Below, one piece after another: positions 3,138 to 23,683 of a DNA stretch of 64,000 nucleotides. How positions within the stretch are numbered: position 1 is the first letter of the stretch; every line of letters starts with the position of its first letter. This DNA comes from an uncultured Acidobacteriaceae bacterium (GTDB lineage: Bacteria > Acidobacteriota > Terriglobia > Terriglobales > Acidobacteriaceae): positions 500,476 to 564,475 of the forward strand of contig CAVUQI010000001.1 in assembly GCA_963743585.1 (NCBI GenBank). The letters are read 5' to 3'. The notes under the pieces were generated by a model. The model worked only from the letters and a program-made list of their open reading frames with translations. It had not been told where the DNA came from and did no database searches. The position numbers and the translations under genes are program-made.

Positions 3138-3170
3138 GCTCATTCGCTGCTGCTTCAGGCTTGCGAACTC

Positions 3171-3818
3171 TTAGGCCCTGACGATTTTCCGGCGCGCGAT
3201 TCCAGCCAGATAAATCAAACCGGTACCGAACAGGACCAGCGATGTCGGCTCCGGAACTGGAGAGTATCCAATGTATTCCTGCGCCGTGCCGCCCCAGCTC
3301 TGCGTTCCCGGGATCGGCGTATAGAGATACAGTCCATTAAACGCGCTGTTCTTGGCGGTGCCGGCCATGGCGAGATATTCCGTTTCAATGGCTGCGGCTC
3401 CGCTACTCTGAAAGTATGAATTATTCTGCGCATTGGTGGAGAACAATCCCCAAATCGCAAAGTTGCCCGCGTTCACGTTCACCGTGCCGCTCAGAATGCT
3501 CTTGAAGATCAGTCCCGCAGCCTTGTAGTCGAGCAATTGATTGCCAAATAGTCCCTTGCCGCTCAGCAGGCTGCTTACAGTGGCTTGCCAGGTCTCGCCC
3601 ACTACAACTTCATTGTCGTAAGAGTCACAGATCAGCGCCACCGGCTTAGCGCCATTGATCGAGAAATAGTATGGATAGGTGTACACGCCGCCGGCATTGT
3701 TCCCGCCGACGCTGGTGAGCTGCATGGTTACGTTTGAGTTGGCCAGAGCCGTACCGGTGCAGAGAAACATCGCGGCCAGAATGGTGAGAGAAGATACAGC
3801 AAGACGAAGTTGACGCAT
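3171..3818 (-). CDS. PEP-CTERM sorting-domain secreted protein
   Basis: C-terminus VPEPTSLVLFGTGLIYLAGIARRKIVRA (PEP motif, TM helix, basic tail). Internal ATG at 3818 gives the signal peptide MRQLRLAVSSLTILAAMFLCTGTALA. Confidence 0.8.
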   Translation of the reverse strand: MRQLRLAVSSLTILAAMFLCTGTALANSNVTMQLTSVGGNNAGGVYTYPYYFSINGAKPVALICDSYDNEVVVGETWQATVSSLLSGKGLFGNQLLDYKAAGLIFKSILSGTVNVNAGNFAIWGLFSTNAQNNSYFQSSGAAAIETEYLAMAGTAKNSAFNGLYLYTPIPGTQSWGGTAQEYIGYSPVPEPTSLVLFGTGLIYLAGIARRKIVRA

Positions 3819-4187
3819 TTCTTTTAACGCCTCCAGCGAATGGTTCAGTCGGTTGCGCTCACGAGAGCCGGTTACTCCACACTGAAGTAACTTCACCCAG
3901 GCCAGATACCGCATTCGGCGGGGTTCCTGGCGAAGCTTAGTGAGTCCGGCGTTTCGCTCGCTCGTCTCTATAAGAGCAGCAGGGTAGCCAAATGACGGCG
4001 CAATCGAATCTTTGATTTGGGTCTCGTCAGATCGGGTGCGATGAAAGTGTTTTCACATGCTGGAAGGAAAGTGAATGTTTGCCCTGCGGCTTGGTCATCC
4101 CCTAAAAGTAACGTGGGTAATCATCGAGGGTAACCTTTTTCGAAGAACGCGGCAGATTTCATTGCGGCCGCTTCAGTCGAGAAGTGC

Positions 4188-18475: not shown

Positions 18476-19856
18476 CTACTGCGCTAATTCTTTGCGGACG
18501 CGAGCCATCAGCCTCCGGTATTCGGAATCGTTTTGTAGTGCCGGAATCGGCGGGTCTGACGTGAGAAGGCCGGCCTCGCGGCGGTCAAAAGCGAGTTGGA
18601 GGTAGGTGAGCGCATCCCTGGTTCTGCCGAGAGCGGCGTACGAGACTGCCAGATCGTAGGCATTTCCACCCCCGCCGTCGACTGCCGCTTTCTGCAGGGG
18701 TAGTTGAGCTTGCAGCATCCCTCTCGGGCCGCCGGAGGAGAATCCCTCGGCGCGGGCATCAGCGAGCGCCAGGCCTGCCAGGTCGTGGCGCAACTCAGCG
18801 ACCGTGCGCCACTCAGCAACGGCCTTTGCATAGTCCCGCTGCTCCCACGCGATTCTTGCAAGGTAATAATGAGTGGATGAAAGAGACGGATCGGTAGTTT
18901 CGAGCTGCTTGAGCAAGGCGAGCCCCTCAGAATGGCGGCCAGCAGACCACAATAGGTATCCCTTGTCGGCGAGCAGTGCGGTCGATGCGGGCTCGAGGCG
19001 CTGCGCCTGATCGATCTGATCGATGGCATCCGGAAAACGATGGAGCGCCATCAGATAGGTCGCATACCAGTGGTGGGCGCGCACCAGATCGGGATTCAAC
19101 TGCAAAGCGCGCTTGAATTCGCGCTCGGCGGTCGCTGCCTTCCACAACCACCAGAAGGTTGCAAAGGCGAGCGAGTTGTGGGCCTGGGCGGAGGTGTCGT
19201 CAAGTTGGACCGCGCGCTGTGCGGCAGCGAGTGCGCGCGGGTAAGCCTCGGCCGCAGGCATGACTCCGAATTCGCGCAGCAGGTTATAACAGTCGGCGAG
19301 TCCGACGTAGGCTTCGGCATTGCCGGGATCTCGGACGATGGCCTGCGTGAAATAGTCGATCGCCTGGGTGAGGTCATCGGGTGTGCGACGGCTCCAGAAA
19401 TAGCGTCCCTTGAGGTAGAACTCCTGGGCTTGTGTGTTGGATGAATGGTGGCTGGCTGCGCTCGCGAATCGAAATGCGCCACGCTGTCCCAGGTAAATAA
19501 TCAGCAAAACAATCAACAAGAACGACGCCGACACGGCAGCCCATAGCGCTCGGGTGTGGGCCCTCGCGGCGGTCGACCCGAAGTTCGGTCCTTGACTTGC
19601 CGCCTCGACTGCGTCCTCGTGGGCCGGTTTATCGAAGGCTGGTTCTGCCGCTATGGTTCCTGCTGAATCTCCGGTTGGAGGGGCCAACTCCGGCAGAGTT
19701 GGCGATTCTGAATTGAGGTCTTCGGGACCGGCTTTTCAGCCAATCGGCCAGCTCCCGAGTGTAGGCAAAAACTGAGCTGCGGCCGTTCCCCGGAAGCCGA
19801 TGAACGGGGAGACCGCGTTCCGACTCCCAGCGCTTGACGGTGCGCTCGGCGCGGCC
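18476..19856 (-). pseudogene. HTH (ERTVKRWE-type) + TPR regulator, 3' fragment, separated from its 5' end by the IS insertion and carrying one further frameshift
   Basis: The minus strand reads GRAERTVKRWESERGLPVHRLPGNGRSSVFAYTRELADWLK, then needs a 1-nt skip in the A-run (plus strand TTTT 19733..19736) to continue as AGPEDLNSESPTLPELAPPTGDS... into the 403-aa TM+TPR ORF. Length 3n+1. Confidence 0.75.
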
Positions 19857-19864
19857 AAAAAAAG
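19857..19864. repeat. Target-site duplication AAAAAAAG (left copy)
   Basis: Identical 8-mer at 21778..21785, directly abutting the inverted repeats. Confidence 0.8.
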
Positions 19865-19907
19865 GGCATTAAATCACAAGACTCACCTAGCGTGGTAAAC
19901 TCTATGA

Positions 19908-20282
19908 ATGGCCTTCGTACAATTTTCCAGTGGCTTCACGCCACAGCAACAAAAGAAAATCATCGACGCAGTAAGCCCAAAGCTGCGCGGCTGCTCGGCG
20001 TGCGGCCAAAATGCATGGCAACTGATGACGGAGGGTGTCGTTCAGATGCCGATTGCACCGAATCCCGGAGCATTAGCATCGGCATTCTACTCGCAGCCCC
20101 CAAACTATGCGGATGCAGCCATGTATGGTCTCATCGGTCCAACCCCTCCGCGAACGTTGCCATGCATCGCGCTTATGTGCAGCAACTGCGGTCATTTGCA
20201 GTTTTACAGTGTGCTTCAGCTTGGTCTCGGTGTTGCGCTTGGAGTCGTGGCATCGCTCATCCCAGAGCCGGAGGGACAATAG
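19908..20282 (+). CDS. Passenger gene A: 124-aa hypothetical protein with CxxC...CxxC (zinc-ribbon-like) and a hydrophobic C-terminus
   Basis: CSACG at about residue 29 and CSNCGH at about residue 91. Its coding end contains GGAGGG, placed as an SD for the next gene. The region is visibly less GC-rich than its surroundings. Confidence 0.6.
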   Translation: MAFVQFSSGFTPQQQKKIIDAVSPKLRGCSACGQNAWQLMTEGVVQMPIAPNPGALASAFYSQPPNYADAAMYGLIGPTPPRTLPCIALMCSNCGHLQFYSVLQLGLGVALGVVASLIPEPEGQ

Positions 20283-20283
20283 G

Positions 20284-20655
20284 ATGTCTGGACAGAACCT
20301 TATTCCTCCGCAAGAAGATGATGGCAATCCGATTCTCTCGCCTGTCCCAATTCCTCTCACCGTGCAATATGTTCAGAGGAGTATGCGCATGATTCCTGTA
20401 AACAGCCATGAATTGGATACCGTCGCATCTCTTAGCAACTCGGTCAACTTAGCATTTTTCACTTTGTGCGTGGGGCTGGCTGCTGCCTTTGGACTTGTTC
20501 TCAATCAGGGCGGTATCACTGATGCCATGAAGCACGCTGAATATGTGAGTCTGTTCGCTGTGTCGGTAGTAGGTTCACTTTATTTCGGAGTCAGAGCATT
20601 GGTTGACCACCGAGCGGCGAAAAGAAGATTGGATGACATTAAGCGCGGCAAGTGA
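20284..20655 (+). CDS. Passenger gene B: 123-aa hypothetical 2-TM membrane protein with basic C-terminal tail
   Basis: ATG lies 1 nt after the stop of gene A. Two hydrophobic helices (VNLAFFTLCVGLAAAFGLVL and YVSLFAVSVVGSLYFGV). Tail HRAAKRRLDDIKRGK. Confidence 0.6.
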   Translation: MSGQNLIPPQEDDGNPILSPVPIPLTVQYVQRSMRMIPVNSHELDTVASLSNSVNLAFFTLCVGLAAAFGLVLNQGGITDAMKHAEYVSLFAVSVVGSLYFGVRALVDHRAAKRRLDDIKRGK

Positions 20656-20800
20656 TTCGCGGTTTATTTTGTCGCTGGTTTCCGTAATGGAGGCGCGTTG
20701 ACCACTCGTTTAAGCAGTTTTTTGAACTTGCGAAACCCCGGCGGCTTCTTGGGCTTTGGTTCTTTTCCCTCTACCTTGTCGTGGTTCTTTTCCATGCGCA

Positions 20801-21729
20801 TCACCCTAACACTAGCGCATACGTCAAGCGCTTGCCGACAATGGAATCGAGCACTTTCTGGAATCTTTCTGCACTGGTTAGCTTACGCTCGTTATAGCGA
20901 AAGGCTTGCTCATCAAGGTATCTGAATAAATGAAACGGCTCGACACTCACATACGTTCCTTTGATCGAGCGCTTCAACAGCGACCAGAAATTCTCAAGGC
21001 GATTAGTGTGAACGTTGCCATTAACGTATTCTTCGGCATGATCGACAACCTTGTGCGCGTAGTCAGACTCAAGCCCATCATACGATTTCAGCGCGTCAGT
21101 ATAAACTGCCGTTCCCGCTGCGACGTTCTCTCTAATTCGTCGTTGCAGTTCACCTTTGCGCCGCGTGCTCACAACGGACGTGCGAATCTTTCCAGTCTCG
21201 CGCTCCAACAATCCGAATACAACAGCTTTTCCCATGGGGCCGCGTCCACGAATCTTTTCCATGCGCTTCCCGATGTGCATATTTCGTGCCTTCCCGCCGA
21301 TAAAGGTTTCATCTGCTTCCACGGTACCAGTCATTTTGTTGACGCTACCCGTGTGCATGGCGTAGCGGATACGATGCAGCATGAACCATGCCGACCGCTG
21401 AGTAACTTTGATCGCGTCGGCAAGTTCGTAACTGCTGATGCCGTTCTTACAATTCGCAAGCAGCCACATCGCCGTCAGCCATTTGTCGAGCGGAATCGCG
21501 CTGTCCTCAAAGATCGTTCCGACCTTGACGGAGAACTGCTTCTTGCAATCGAGGCACTTCCACATCAGGCGCGTAGTCAGAAACGACAGCCGTTTGGATG
21601 CACATTGCGGACAAGCAGGCCATTAGGCCACTTGGACTCGGCAACGTGTTTCAGGCAGACCATAGGGTCAGAAAAATACCGAATAGCTTCCATCAAACCA
21701 TTGGCGCTGTATGGTTTATCGTTTCTCAT
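20801..21729 (-). pseudogene. IS1595 family transposase, apparent 1-nt deletion near codon 37
   Basis: MRNDKPYSANGLMEAIRYFSDPMVCLKHVAESKWPNG (frame a) continues as PACPQCASKRLSFLTTRLMWKCLDCKKQFSVKVGTIFEDS... (frame of ORF 20801..21565). Junction near 21618..21621; length 3n+2. N-terminal zinc ribbon plus DDE_Tnp_IS1595-like core (DETFIGG, VYTDALKSY, HTNRLENFWSLLKR). Confidence 0.85.
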
Positions 21730-21753
21730 GAGGTGAGTCTAGCACATCATGAA

Positions 21754-21777
21754 AGGTGAGTCAAGTGATTTGTTGCC
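21754..21777. repeat. Transposase-proximal terminal inverted repeat of the IS1595-family element
   Basis: See the mobile_element entry. The 9-mer AGGTGAGTC also recurs subterminally at 21731..21739. Confidence 0.8.
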
Positions 21778-21785
21778 AAAAAAAG
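21778..21785. repeat. Target-site duplication AAAAAAAG (right copy)
   Basis: Identical to 19857..19864. Confidence 0.8.
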
Positions 21786-21846
21786 CCGCAATTTCTTTCC
21801 AGGAATCCAGCCGATGAGACGCCAACGGGTCGCGATGAGCTGCCAT
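21778..21846 (-). pseudogene. HTH+TPR regulator, 5' fragment (23 codons) cut off by the IS insertion
   Basis: The minus strand reads MAAHRDPLASHRLDSWKEIAAFF, then runs into the IS inverted repeat. It joins in frame to G RAERTVKRWE at 19856 once the element is removed. Confidence 0.65.
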
Positions 21847-22015
21847 AAAGGGAAATGACCTGTACTGACCCGTAGCGGCCTGAACTGTCTCTTGCGGGGG
21901 GGGAACGCCGGGGAACCATAGTATAGCCCGAACCCGCGCGTTGCGCTCCCCCACTAGAGTGCCCCCTCAGGCATTAGGCCCCGCGCATAAACCTAACAAC
22001 CTCAGGAGGATTTGG

Positions 22016-23683
22016 ATGTCGGCTCAGTCTTTTTGTCGCCAGGCTTCGGCTTTGGCTTTCGCATTTATCTCCGTTTTCGCTGTTTTCGGTAGCGCTTCAG
22101 CCCACGCGCAAACTTTTAAACCGATCTTTGAGGGAACAAACGCCACTACCATCGTGAACCCCTCCAGCAGGGTTGTGACCCAGGGCACCGATGGCGACAT
22201 GTATTTCACCAGCGAAAACGGCGGCACTTTTTATGGAACGCTGTTTAAGGTGTCACCGACCGGAGCAGGTGCACTGGTTTATGACATTTCCTATTTTCCG
22301 ACCAGCGGCGTCAGCCTTGGCCTGGACGGCGAATACTACGGAACCAACGGAGACGGCGGACCGGGCGGCGGTTGCGGTTTTTCCGGATGCGGCCAAATCT
22401 ATAAGGTGTCGGAAGCCGGAAAAGAGACGATTCTATACAGCTTTACCGGTGAGGGCGACGGTGCGGACCCGCAGTCTCCCCCAATCCTCGCCGCTAACGG
22501 CCTTTTCTACGGCACCGCACCCGCTGGCGGCGCCAATAGCGCCAGCACTGCATACTCGATCAGTTCCTCCGGAGCATTCAAGATCCTGCACACCTTCGCC
22601 GCAACTGAAGGGCAACAGGTGCAGGCGGAACTGGTGCAGGGACTCGATGGCAACTTTTACGGCACGGCTGTTAACGGCGGGGCTAATGGTCTTGGAACGA
22701 TCTTCAAGATGAGCCCCACCGGCACCGTGGCGGTGTTGCATAACTTCGCGGGATCCGATGGCTCGAATCCATGCTGCGGACTGTTGCTGGCCAGCGACGG
22801 AAATTTCTATGGCACGACCAGTAATGGCGGAGGCGAGGGCATTGCGGGTGTAATCTTTCGGATCACGCCGGCAGGCGTCTACACCGTGCTTCACAGCATC
22901 AATCCCGCGAATGGGGATGGCACGGGGCCGGGATCCACGCTGACCCAAGGCACCGACGGAAAACTCTATGGCGTCACCGCCTCCGGCGGTGGTGGGGTGA
23001 GCGGCACGCTCTTTAACATGACCACGACCGGCACGTTTAAGACTTTGTATACATTTTGCAGCAGTGGAACTTGTACTGACGGCTACGGGCCCAGCTCTCC
23101 GCTGAAGCAGAATACGAATGGCGTCTTTTATGGCAGCACTTGGTCCGGCGGGGATTTGACACAGTGCAACGGGGAAGGTTGCGGCGAGGTCTACAGCTTG
23201 AGCACGGGGCTGAAGCCTTTCGTATCGCTGCCGCTCGCATCCGGCGAAGAGGGCGCGAAGGAAGAGATCCTGGGCCAAGGCTTCACCACGTCATCGACCG
23301 TTAGCTTTGGTGGAACTCCGGCGACCATCACTGAGGCAACCAGCAAACTTCTGGTGGTCAAGGTTCCGGCGGGAGCGTTGACGGGTTCGGTGACAGTCAC
23401 AACCGGGTCTGAAACATTGACCAGTTCCCGGATCTTCCGCGTAACTCCGACCTTCCTTTCGTTCGATCCGACGAGCGGACAGGTGGGAACGCCTGTGACC
23501 ATTACGGGAACCGGGTTGACGCAAACCATCGGCGTGGCGTTCGATGGGACCGCAGCAAGTTTTACGGTTGATTCCGACACGCAGATCACGGCAACGGTTC
23601 CGAGCGGAGCCAAGAGCGGAAAAATCACTGTTACTACCCAGGGAGGAAGCGTGAGCAGTAGCACCAGCTTTACGGTGAATTAG
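22016..23683 (+). CDS. Secreted GloVer-type tandem-repeat protein with C-terminal IPT/TIG-like domains
   Basis: AGGAGG before ATG 22016; signal peptide ending ASAHAQ. Repeats of the type GTLFKVSPTG...LYSF...DGxxP...DGxFYGTTxxGG. Three C-terminal segments of about 80 aa: FTV..ITGTGL / GKITVTT. Confidence 0.8.
   Translation: MSAQSFCRQASALAFAFISVFAVFGSASAHAQTFKPIFEGTNATTIVNPSSRVVTQGTDGDMYFTSENGGTFYGTLFKVSPTGAGALVYDISYFPTSGVSLGLDGEYYGTNGDGGPGGGCGFSGCGQIYKVSEAGKETILYSFTGEGDGADPQSPPILAANGLFYGTAPAGGANSASTAYSISSSGAFKILHTFAATEGQQVQAELVQGLDGNFYGTAVNGGANGLGTIFKMSPTGTVAVLHNFAGSDGSNPCCGLLLASDGNFYGTTSNGGGEGIAGVIFRITPAGVYTVLHSINPANGDGTGPGSTLTQGTDGKLYGVTASGGGGVSGTLFNMTTTGTFKTLYTFCSSGTCTDGYGPSSPLKQNTNGVFYGSTWSGGDLTQCNGEGCGEVYSLSTGLKPFVSLPLASGEEGAKEEILGQGFTTSSTVSFGGTPATITEATSKLLVVKVPAGALTGSVTVTTGSETLTSSRIFRVTPTFLSFDPTSGQVGTPVTITGTGLTQTIGVAFDGTAASFTVDSDTQITATVPSGAKSGKITVTTQGGSVSSSTSFTVN

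Follow-up and report, generated by a model that had tools for sequence, protein, structure and literature searches.

A conserved pair of zinc-ribbon and membrane-hairpin genes carried by IS1595-family insertion sequences of Acidobacteriota

The 64,000-nucleotide (nt) stretch of DNA from an uncultured Acidobacteriaceae bacterium analyzed here (contig CAVUQI010000001.1; hereafter the window) contains a 1,913-bp insertion sequence (IS) of the IS1595 family that carries, adjoining its left inverted repeat (IRL), a passenger pair of small genes, which we call A and B. Comparison with their relatives gives good support to the following anatomy: the pair is a mobile, conserved operon predicted to encode a zinc-ribbon protein (A) and a membrane hairpin protein (B), accompanied by a third reading frame (X) that ends at the start of a putative short form of B. 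As to its role, the module may encode a membrane effector of holin-like type under regulation and work for the IS as an addiction-type or abortive cassette, a reading which we hold tentatively and rate at clearly less than an even chance. The features of the module are the following:

19893-19901, plus strand: extended -10-like element TGgTAAACT, ending 6 nt before the ATG of A
19904-20392, plus strand: overprinted open frame X, +2 relative to A, with ATG at 19904 and TGA at 20390-20392
19908-20282, plus strand: gene A, 124 amino acids (aa), predicted cytoplasmic zinc-ribbon protein (CxxC ... CxxC), divergent and DUF2082/Zn_ribbon_13-like
20270-20275, plus strand: Shine-Dalgarno motif GGAGGG for the long form of B (B-long), within the last codons of A
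20284-20655, plus strand: gene B, long form, 123 aa, with an N-terminal extension, a membrane hairpin, and a basic C-terminal helix
20377-20381, plus strand: internal Shine-Dalgarno motif AGGAG, within B at the codons for Arg32-Ser33
20389-20655, plus strand: gene B, putative short form (B-short), 88 aa, with its ATG 7 nt after AGGAG; hairpin without the N-terminal extension

An earlier note on this DNA, made by a model from the sequence alone, had described A and B as a two-gene cargo, and the coordinates, lengths, CxxC pairs, stop and start positions, and GGAGGG motif that it gave were all correct. Both open reading frames (ORFs) indeed turned out to be genuine genes, but a description as two genes is incomplete, since the locus also contains the internal start in B and the conserved frame X. 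Between the stop codon of A (TAG, 20280-20282) and the ATG of B (20284) lies a single G, and this spacing, together with the Shine-Dalgarno motif of B inside the end of A, indicates that A and B-long are made together. The same arrangement of stop, 1 nt, and start was found in 12 of 16 loci with homologous pairs. Within the closer subfamily, it is present, with either ATG or GTG, in 11 of 11 loci, and a GGAGG-type motif occupies the last codons of A in 10 of these 11, which bears out the translational coupling proposed in the note.

The 16 distinct loci, in each of which an A homolog is directly followed by a gene for a small two-helix membrane protein, were obtained through a DNA search combined with our own translation; with word-indexed protein searches, the yield had been 2 relatives for A and 6 for B. 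The membrane partner of A belongs to the B family in 14 of the 16 loci. Their sources are soil and peat metagenomes as well as three Acidobacteriota metagenome-assembled genomes (Ca. Sulfotelmatobacter, Bryobacterales, and Acidobacteriaceae), and all loci of identifiable origin belong to the Acidobacteriota. Among 185,579 species-representative genomes, the module is represented by 3 loci. The genes are not housekeeping genes, and A and B co-occur; the opposite findings would, according to the note, have spoken against it. The conserved pairing of small, adjacent, co-translated genes that characterizes type II-like toxin-antitoxin systems is likewise found for A-B throughout the 16 loci.

Pairwise codon alignments with diverged homologs gave ratios of nonsynonymous to synonymous substitution rates (dN/dS) of 0.10-0.18 for A, with differences mostly at third codon positions, and of 0.08-0.18 for B. 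These third-position substitutions and low ratios identify both as genuine genes rather than chance ORFs. In A, the two CxxC pairs (CSAC, residues 29-32; CSNC, residues 91-94) comprise four cysteines, C29, C32, C91, and C94, which are invariant across 14 family members; a profile of A led to 14 proteins. An AlphaFold2 model based on 14 sequences predicts that residues 12-22 form an N-terminal helix and that the zinc ribbon has four strands, with values of the predicted local distance difference test (pLDDT) of 77-88 in the core, whereas a 40-residue loop and the tail are disordered. A therefore has the invariant cysteines and the predicted ribbon of a four-cysteine zinc-ribbon protein, with metal binding being putative. 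The hydrophobic C-terminus that the note had ascribed to A exists in the window copy (KD19 1.9) but is not a family trait, as the C-termini of homologs are Gly/Pro-rich without a conserved membrane helix.

The nearest named family of A is Pfam PF09855, Zn_ribbon_13 (DUF2082), for which no function is known. The window copy scored 12 bits (E = 0.24), below the gathering cutoff of 23, and two further members, P0016 and P0018, reached 19.6-20.1 bits; the distant member P0019 passed the cutoff with 28.1 bits. Since none but this distant member reaches the cutoff, A is a remote relative rather than a formal member of PF09855. Both share the CxxC ... CxxC ribbon ending in C-x-x-C-G-aromatic-x-x-aromatic, while proteins of the A family are extended by a helix at the N-terminus (FTxEQQxKI), by a variable loop of considerable length, and by the Gly/Pro-rich tail. 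The idea that A could be a truncated transposase domain was dropped because hhalign gave a probability of 3% for the profile of A against the zinc ribbons at the N-termini of the accompanying transposases.

For B, the two transmembrane helices and the basic tail mentioned in the note correspond to hydrophobic segments at approximately residues 53-76 and 88-107 and to AKRRLDDIKRGK, respectively. AlphaFold2 predicts that residues 1-39 are disordered and that a helical hairpin (41-74 and 81-120) comes after them; it should be noted that the models of A and B are of modest overall confidence, with pLDDT values of 63-65. From the positive-inside rule we infer that both ends of B face the cytoplasm. 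The family is recognizable by an N-terminal P(L/V)T(V/I)xYxPR motif (PLTVxYxPR in the window), by (L/V/I)-x-M-(H/Y)-x-V, by E-L-D immediately ahead of helix 1, by an invariant Gly in helix 1, and by YFG(I/V)R...D(Y/W)R...L..IK after helix 2. The codons of the PLTV region vary at third positions in the frame of B, which shows that the N-terminal extension is protein-coding. An exhaustive profile search yielded 350 clusters at 50% identity (E <= 1e-3), 108 of them with E <= 1e-10; nearly all members are 85-135 aa long, and the family is unnamed. Thus, the remark in the note that neither protein was recognized as a member of a named family stands as far as characterized families are concerned, but has to be amended by the remote relationship of A to Zn_ribbon_13/DUF2082 and by the assignment of B to a family that has about 350 clusters but no name. 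A further member, at L025:3321-4366, is a 179-aa B-family protein with a long N-terminal extension; its upstream partner, which takes the place of A, is an unrelated 167-aa coiled-coil-like protein without a zinc ribbon, and the surroundings are chromosomal (glycosyltransferase, MacB, and bPH_2).

The recurrent weak family signals of B are to PF07332 (Phage_holin_3_6) and LapA_dom, with no others, and all are below threshold. Matches to PF07332 were found in 9 of 106 B-family members (best E 4e-4), and a comparison of the B profile with Escherichia coli YqjE, a member of PF07332, gave an hhalign probability of 10%, so that we claim no PF07332 membership for B. The layout is alike, with a collinear arrangement of cytoplasmic N-terminal segment, two membrane helices, and basic helix, although the operon partners differ, being YqjD and YqjK for YqjE and a zinc-ribbon protein for B, and kinship is unproven. 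E. coli YqjE is a non-lytic stationary-phase membrane protein. The resemblance bears on the explanation that A and B are harmless adaptive cargo, a small membrane or stress-homeostasis pair comparable to inner-membrane proteins of the YqjE or LapA type with a cytoplasmic zinc-ribbon partner, which would confer a conditional benefit in soil and use the IS as a carrier. The steady purifying selection on both genes, the solo copies in chromosomes described below, and the lack of detectable toxin or defense homology all fit this explanation. However, the profile matches on which it draws are as weak as just stated, and a module that is so rare, patchy, and tied to mobile elements (3 loci in 185,579 genomes) would be unusual for a generally useful function. 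Moreover, neither the two starts of B nor frame X would be explained. We regard such adaptive cargo as rather unlikely, while giving it real weight.

B also has a conserved internal start signal. The codon for the conserved Arg32 is the rare AGG in 10 of 13 B-family loci, as opposed to 5% of Arg codons in neighboring genes, and the other 3 loci form GAGG, GGGAGG, or AAGGA at this position. In all 13 loci, an ATG (8 loci) or a GTG (5 loci) follows 6-8 nt downstream, with each Val there being encoded by GTG. Furthermore, Met fills the internal-start column in 74 of 106 B-family members, and the internal start was chosen by gene callers for P0003 and for about one-fifth of the B-family representatives, the latter as proteins of 84-99 aa. 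B-short corresponds to B-long minus the 35-residue N-terminal extension. With these start signals on the one hand and a coding extension on the other, both forms are plausible, and B is probably made in two isoforms.

Dual-start motifs are known from class II holins, e.g., S68/S71 of phage 21 and S105/S107 of lambda, whose forms differ by 2-3 residues. B resembles these proteins in being small, in its two membrane helices and basic, charged C-terminal tail, and in its two in-frame starts (with predicted products), but its forms differ by approximately 35 residues. In contrast to holins, B has no endolysin, spanin, or phage context, meets no holin threshold in Pfam, and has a zinc-ribbon partner that is translationally coupled to its long form.

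Frame X is open from 19838 and extends over the whole of A into B, of which it covers the first 36 codons, and its stop overlaps the B-short start as ATGA in the window. Over A, X contains 0 stops in 14 diverged loci, compared with 45 expected by codon permutation; this set consists of the 13 B-family loci with both genes complete and of L014, where B is cut by the contig end. Counted frame by frame in the 13 loci, X has 0 stops in 1,464 codons, against control-frame values of 3.2-4.3 per 100 codons, with up to 7.6 per 100 (range 3.2-7.6) in control frames within the same genes. When independent-codon models were calibrated with 39 long ORFs, their stop counts proved too high by about one-third; the deficit is still overwhelming after this correction. 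In 12 of 13 loci, the stop of X falls at nt 98-116 of B, i.e., at the internal start or no more than 10 nt from it. The X translations have almost nothing in common, and the synonymous sites of A are saturated, which points to selection on the openness of X alone, not on its sequence. The membrane proteins of the outgroup pairs L017 and L018 are marginal to the B profile; these pairs have 5-6 X-frame stops each and lack the internal Shine-Dalgarno motif.

Given its openness, X might itself be taken for the real gene, with A as a mere shadow of it. X is open in 14 of 14 loci, and gene callers, which predict X with 162-166 aa, chose it in place of A in two of them (L003:5516-6004 and L008:2153-2650, 162-165 aa). 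However, substitutions fall on the third positions of A, with dN/dS of 0.1-0.18, and its four cysteines and several motifs are invariant. In addition, relatives of A reach a Pfam family while the X translations are unlike one another, and A homologs exist without an open X. The selection on the A frame and the invariant cysteines effectively refute the idea that A is not real, and we give such an annotation artifact almost no credence. The preference of gene callers for X implies that the A family is under-represented in predicted-protein databases and that its apparent rarity is in part an artifact.

Upstream of A, a -10-like hexamer (TGnTAAACT, TAACAT, TGAAAT, or TATGCT) lies 6-9 nt before the start codon in most loci, and a Shine-Dalgarno-like motif ahead of A was absent from 15 of 16 loci. 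This combination suggests a leaderless mRNA, from which A is probably translated. Neither at the A-B junction nor near the internal start did RNAalifold detect a conserved structure, and an Rfam scan of 19000-22500 gave no match.

The mobility of the pair is evident from the element around it, which, as the note had stated, is a transposon:

19857-19864, no strand: left copy of the target-site duplication, octamer AAAAAAAG, abutting the IRL
19865-19888, no strand: IRL, 24-nt arm, matching the right inverted repeat (IRR) at 20 of 24 positions
20644-20671, plus strand: weak terminator-like signal (hairpin plus T-run) where B ends, from a pattern scan only
20801-21729, minus strand: IS1595-family transposase gene, convergent with A-B, frame broken near 21619
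21736-21764, minus strand: promoter-like site (TTGACT, 17 nt, TAGACT, with TG), from a consensus scan only
21754-21777, no strand: IRR, 24-nt arm pairing with the IRL
21778-21785, no strand: right copy of the target-site duplication, AAAAAAAG, abutting the IRR

The element thus has both features expected at the ends of an IS1595 member, inverted repeats and a target duplication of 8 bp, and the transposase matches DDE_Tnp_IS1595 (PF12762; 5.4e-42, 143.8 bits, cutoff 27) and the ISXO2-like catalytic domain NF033547 (6.5e-54, 183 bits, cutoff 75). In the window, the transposase gene is split by a 1-nt deletion near 21619 into parts at 21577-21729 and 20801-21565, leaving the N-terminal zinc ribbon (21577-21729) out of frame with the DDE domain. 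At the deletion site, the window reads GCAGG-CCATT, compared with GCAGGACCATT in L003, which represents the same locus in an independent Logan assembly; its IS differs from that of the window by one extra A, and its transposase is intact, with 297 aa and a Zn_ribbon_IS1595 domain (PF12760). The deletion may be an assembly error or a genuine inactivating mutation. The sigma-70-like promoter match lies inside the IRR and points towards the transposase gene, and terminator-like hairpins at the end of B are no commoner than in shuffled sequence.

The pair lies just inside the IRL of an IS1595 element in 6 loci. In five elements, those of the window, L006, L011, L026, and L024, A-B is located inside the IRL and convergent with the transposase gene. 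The diverged sister element L006 has an IRL 100% identical in sequence to that of the window and a different insertion site, while L011 has 37-nt inverted repeats, and L026 has 28-nt inverted repeats with flanking ACCTAA repeats. L024:197-3937, an IS1595-family element of 3.7 kb bounded by perfect 23-nt inverted repeats, contains, in addition to the transposase gene, A-B, a 65-aa ORF, and a toxin-antitoxin-like pair made up of a PIN_10 and an HTH_66/DUF433 protein. In L018, the arrangement recurs with a C-terminal transposase fragment, which directly follows the membrane-protein gene. Between the three fully sequenced lineages (the window type, the L011/L026 type, and the L024 type), the transposases are 32-43% identical; L011 and L026 share 72% identity in this protein. 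The recurrence of the same module at the same position beside such divergent transposases makes it look clade-defining rather than casual cargo.

IS1595 elements with passenger genes are known, comprising the transporter IS as well as the '+' groups of ISPna2 and ISNwi1 in ISfinder; published literature on IS1595 passenger genes, ISNwi1, and DUF2082 yielded no useful information. The element of the window resembles them in its DDE_Tnp_IS1595 transposase, the N-terminal zinc ribbon of which is in frame in the L003 assembly but not in the window, in its short inverted repeats and 8-bp duplication, and the location of extra genes between one inverted repeat and the transposase gene. It differs in that one two-gene module recurs at a fixed position across transposases with 32-43% identity.

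This fixed position could also point to a role in transposition itself, in which A would bind the IS ends or the transposase (cf. InsA of IS1 and the Tn5 inhibitor) and B would act as a membrane tether, so that the pair would tune transposition. Besides the constant position inside the IRL in three or four transposase lineages, the divergence of B (39-43% identity), which is close to that of the transposases and fits long co-inheritance, and the zinc ribbon of A, whose Pfam family is labeled 'nucleic-acid-binding', speak for such an accessory. However, A is not detectably related to the transposase zinc ribbon, as noted above, and has no helix-turn-helix, and A-B remains intact under purifying selection in loci free of a transposase. 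Furthermore, we know of no IS family that requires a membrane protein, and most IS1595 elements, to our knowledge, lack such genes. A function as a transposition accessory or regulator thus appears quite unlikely.

Copies of A-B without a transposase (solo copies) occur in several contexts. In L001, an IRL relic lies upstream of A-B and housekeeping genes occupy the place in which the transposase gene would be expected. The neighbors of the solo copies in L007, L009, L010, and L013 vary and mostly lack a Pfam domain, and no known defense genes were seen beside the solo loci examined. The analysis of neighborhoods proposed in the note yielded the IS1595 association in 6 loci and, for the solo loci examined, no link to known defense genes. 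The IRL-like sequence of L001 is located at 1601-1624, and its A-B copy is bracketed by another 23-nt inverted repeat (1505-1527 and 2463-2485, 96% complementary); this copy may be a non-autonomous derivative. In L015, palindromes resembling repetitive extragenic palindromic (REP) sequences, each perfect (3156-3848, with similar ones upstream at 2000-2053), flank an ORF at 3225-3797 directly downstream of the solo pair, which we take, judged by eye, to encode an IS200-type (REP-associated tyrosine, RAYT) transposase.

The similarities of A and B between loci do not run in parallel. Compared with L006, the window is 72% similar in A and 47% in B, whereas it is 52% similar to L001 in A and 71% in B; L001 and L009 share 73% in A and 56% in B. 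Such incongruence indicates recombination at the conserved junction, i.e., a shuffling of alleles. When the window is compared with L006, dN and dS are 0.012 and 0.74 for the transposase and 0.19 and 1.0 for A; for B, dN is 0.37 and dS is saturated. A cassette swap in a near-identical backbone, which we had considered for this pair of elements, was withdrawn in view of the transposase dS of 0.74, which marks the two elements as old relatives; the support for exchange consists of the incongruent similarities of A and B and the saturated dS of B.

How the module could work as an addiction-type or abortive cassette can be outlined as follows. B would be a holin-like effector that perturbs the membrane, and A would restrain B-long by binding the N-terminal extension that is unique to this form, so that membrane damage would be decided by the ratio of B-short to B-long plus A. 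Frame X would serve as a ribosome conveyor, since ribosomes translating X would cross the B-long start and terminate at the B-short start, which would favor the short form. On an IS, the module would be selfish, acting as an addiction or abortive (toxin-antitoxin-like) cassette, and this would explain both its retention by distant IS1595 elements and the persistence of solo copies without a transposase. Gene order and coupling, the dual start, the effector-like architecture, allele shuffling, the co-carriage of a PIN_10/DUF433 pair, and the retention across IS lineages and remnants are in favor of this reading.

A considerable number of observations weigh against it. Neither A nor B resembles a known toxin, antitoxin, holin, or defense protein in sequence or fold, B exceeds typical small membrane toxins with its approximately 120 aa, the incongruent histories of A and B disfavor a strict cognate toxin-antitoxin pairing, and YqjE is matched with an hhalign probability of 10%. 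PADLOC-DB v2 had no match for the window proteins or for 14 A-family members, and a family-wide scan against PHROGs gave noise only, with no holin family at threshold. The comparison of AlphaFold models suggested in the note was also negative, as Foldseek found nothing in the PDB below E = 0.4; its hits were of a generic kind, namely zinc-ribbon ribosomal or RNase P proteins in the case of A and helical hairpins in that of B. Searches of PLSDB plasmids with A and B (tblastn) gave no match, and scans of IMG/VR viral contigs revealed no relative. No endolysin gene is located inside any A-B element, and no A-B fusion, which would have spoken for physical interaction, was found among the long B homologs. 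Furthermore, the homologous loci reveal no route by which ribosomes would enter X: neither a -1 slippery heptamer within A nor a start in frame X preceded by a Shine-Dalgarno motif is conserved, and if the A mRNA is leaderless, the upstream ATG of X is not transcribed. The suggestion in the note that A-B resembles toxin-antitoxin, abortive-infection, or holin-like pairs is consequently upheld with regard to a conserved, coupled, mobile module, but PADLOC, PHROGs, Pfam, and Foldseek provide no tie to any such family.

The remaining homology searches were similarly uninformative. The window proteins gave noise only against Pfam, NCBIfam, and PADLOC, and among 14 A-family and 106 B-family members, Pfam yielded no toxin or antitoxin and, beyond the Zn_ribbon_13 match of P0019, nothing but the sub-threshold PF07332 and LapA_dom signals. 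Profile searches of PDB sequences with A and B returned nothing meaningful.

Transposons with toxin-antitoxin passengers, e.g., Tn3-family elements, are known, and A-B is similar to these passengers in that its small, co-translated genes lie by a transposase gene, are patchily distributed, and survive as remnants; moreover, the related element L024 carries the PIN_10/DUF433 pair as well. Unlike them, A-B has no toxin or antitoxin homology and no DNA-binding antitoxin domain, and its putative toxin is a 120-aa membrane protein. A further reading is a dedicated anti-phage system, in which the zinc ribbon of A would sense a phage cue and free B, and the membrane would collapse before phage release in an abortive infection. 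A sensor combined with a two-helix effector is a layout common to many defense systems, and mobile carriage, variable neighborhoods, and allele shuffling are in line with such a role, as is the toxin-antitoxin-like pair in L024. However, PADLOC had nothing for the A family, as stated above, and four isolated weak matches (E 3e-4 or worse) among 106 B-family members, known defense genes are missing beside the solo loci examined, and A has no recognizable sensor or enzymatic domain. We consider a dedicated anti-phage function unlikely.

A stronger version of the cassette reading would make the module a translational switch. A and X would each bring ribosomes to a different start of B, the balance between the two frames would set the ratio of guarded long to unguarded short form and, with it, silence or membrane damage, and the IS1595 clade would have kept this addiction or suicide timer since its origin. 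We see such a switch as a distinctly improbable, if attractive, extension. Overprinted or coupled frames are known from insA/insB' of IS1, orfA/orfB of IS3, and the lysis genes of single-stranded RNA phages. Like these, X is a second frame maintained over an existing gene in a size-constrained mobile element, but it is conserved in openness only, ends at an internal start, and gives no fusion product, and no slippery site was found.

Taken individually, IS passenger genes, transposon-borne toxin-antitoxin pairs, dual-start holins, and overprinted frames are thus already known kinds, whereas their combination in this module is uncharacterized, as are both protein families. Insertion sequences are usually viewed as little beyond a transposase gene. 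That the module has been kept while the transposases diverged to about one-third identity, and that it survives the loss of the transposase, suggests that it is important to the element. If B is a controlled membrane effector, a protein-based, dual-isoform addiction or abortive module would join the cargo of simple IS, and the unnamed family of about 350 clusters and the DUF2082 branch would receive a first function. X, being conserved and yet free of sequence constraint, lends itself to testing, in a clean natural setting, whether selection can act on translation itself and not on a protein product. On the practical side, X is often called in place of A, which largely hides the A family from protein databases.

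Just beyond the IRL of the A-B-bearing element in L026, a GH25 lysozyme gene was found (L026:2323-2943, minus strand), which is probably coincidental, as it lies outside the element. In the window, the IS is flanked by parts of a host gene encoding a helix-turn-helix domain (LDSWKEIAAFF...) and tetratricopeptide repeats (TPR), at 18476-19869 and 21739-21954 on the minus strand. Removing the IS together with one octamer in silico rejoins the host frame (...LDSWKEIAAFFGRAERTVKRWE...), and the minus-strand junction then reads ...LDSWKEIAAFFGRAERTVKRWESERGLPVHRL..., the helix-turn-helix head of the TPR protein (18476-19687); the regained frame shows that the IS interrupts this gene. Independently of the IS, the helix-turn-helix and TPR parts are also frame-shifted relative to each other across a 4-base T-run (19733-19736), which suggests either indel errors in the assembly or a pseudogene.

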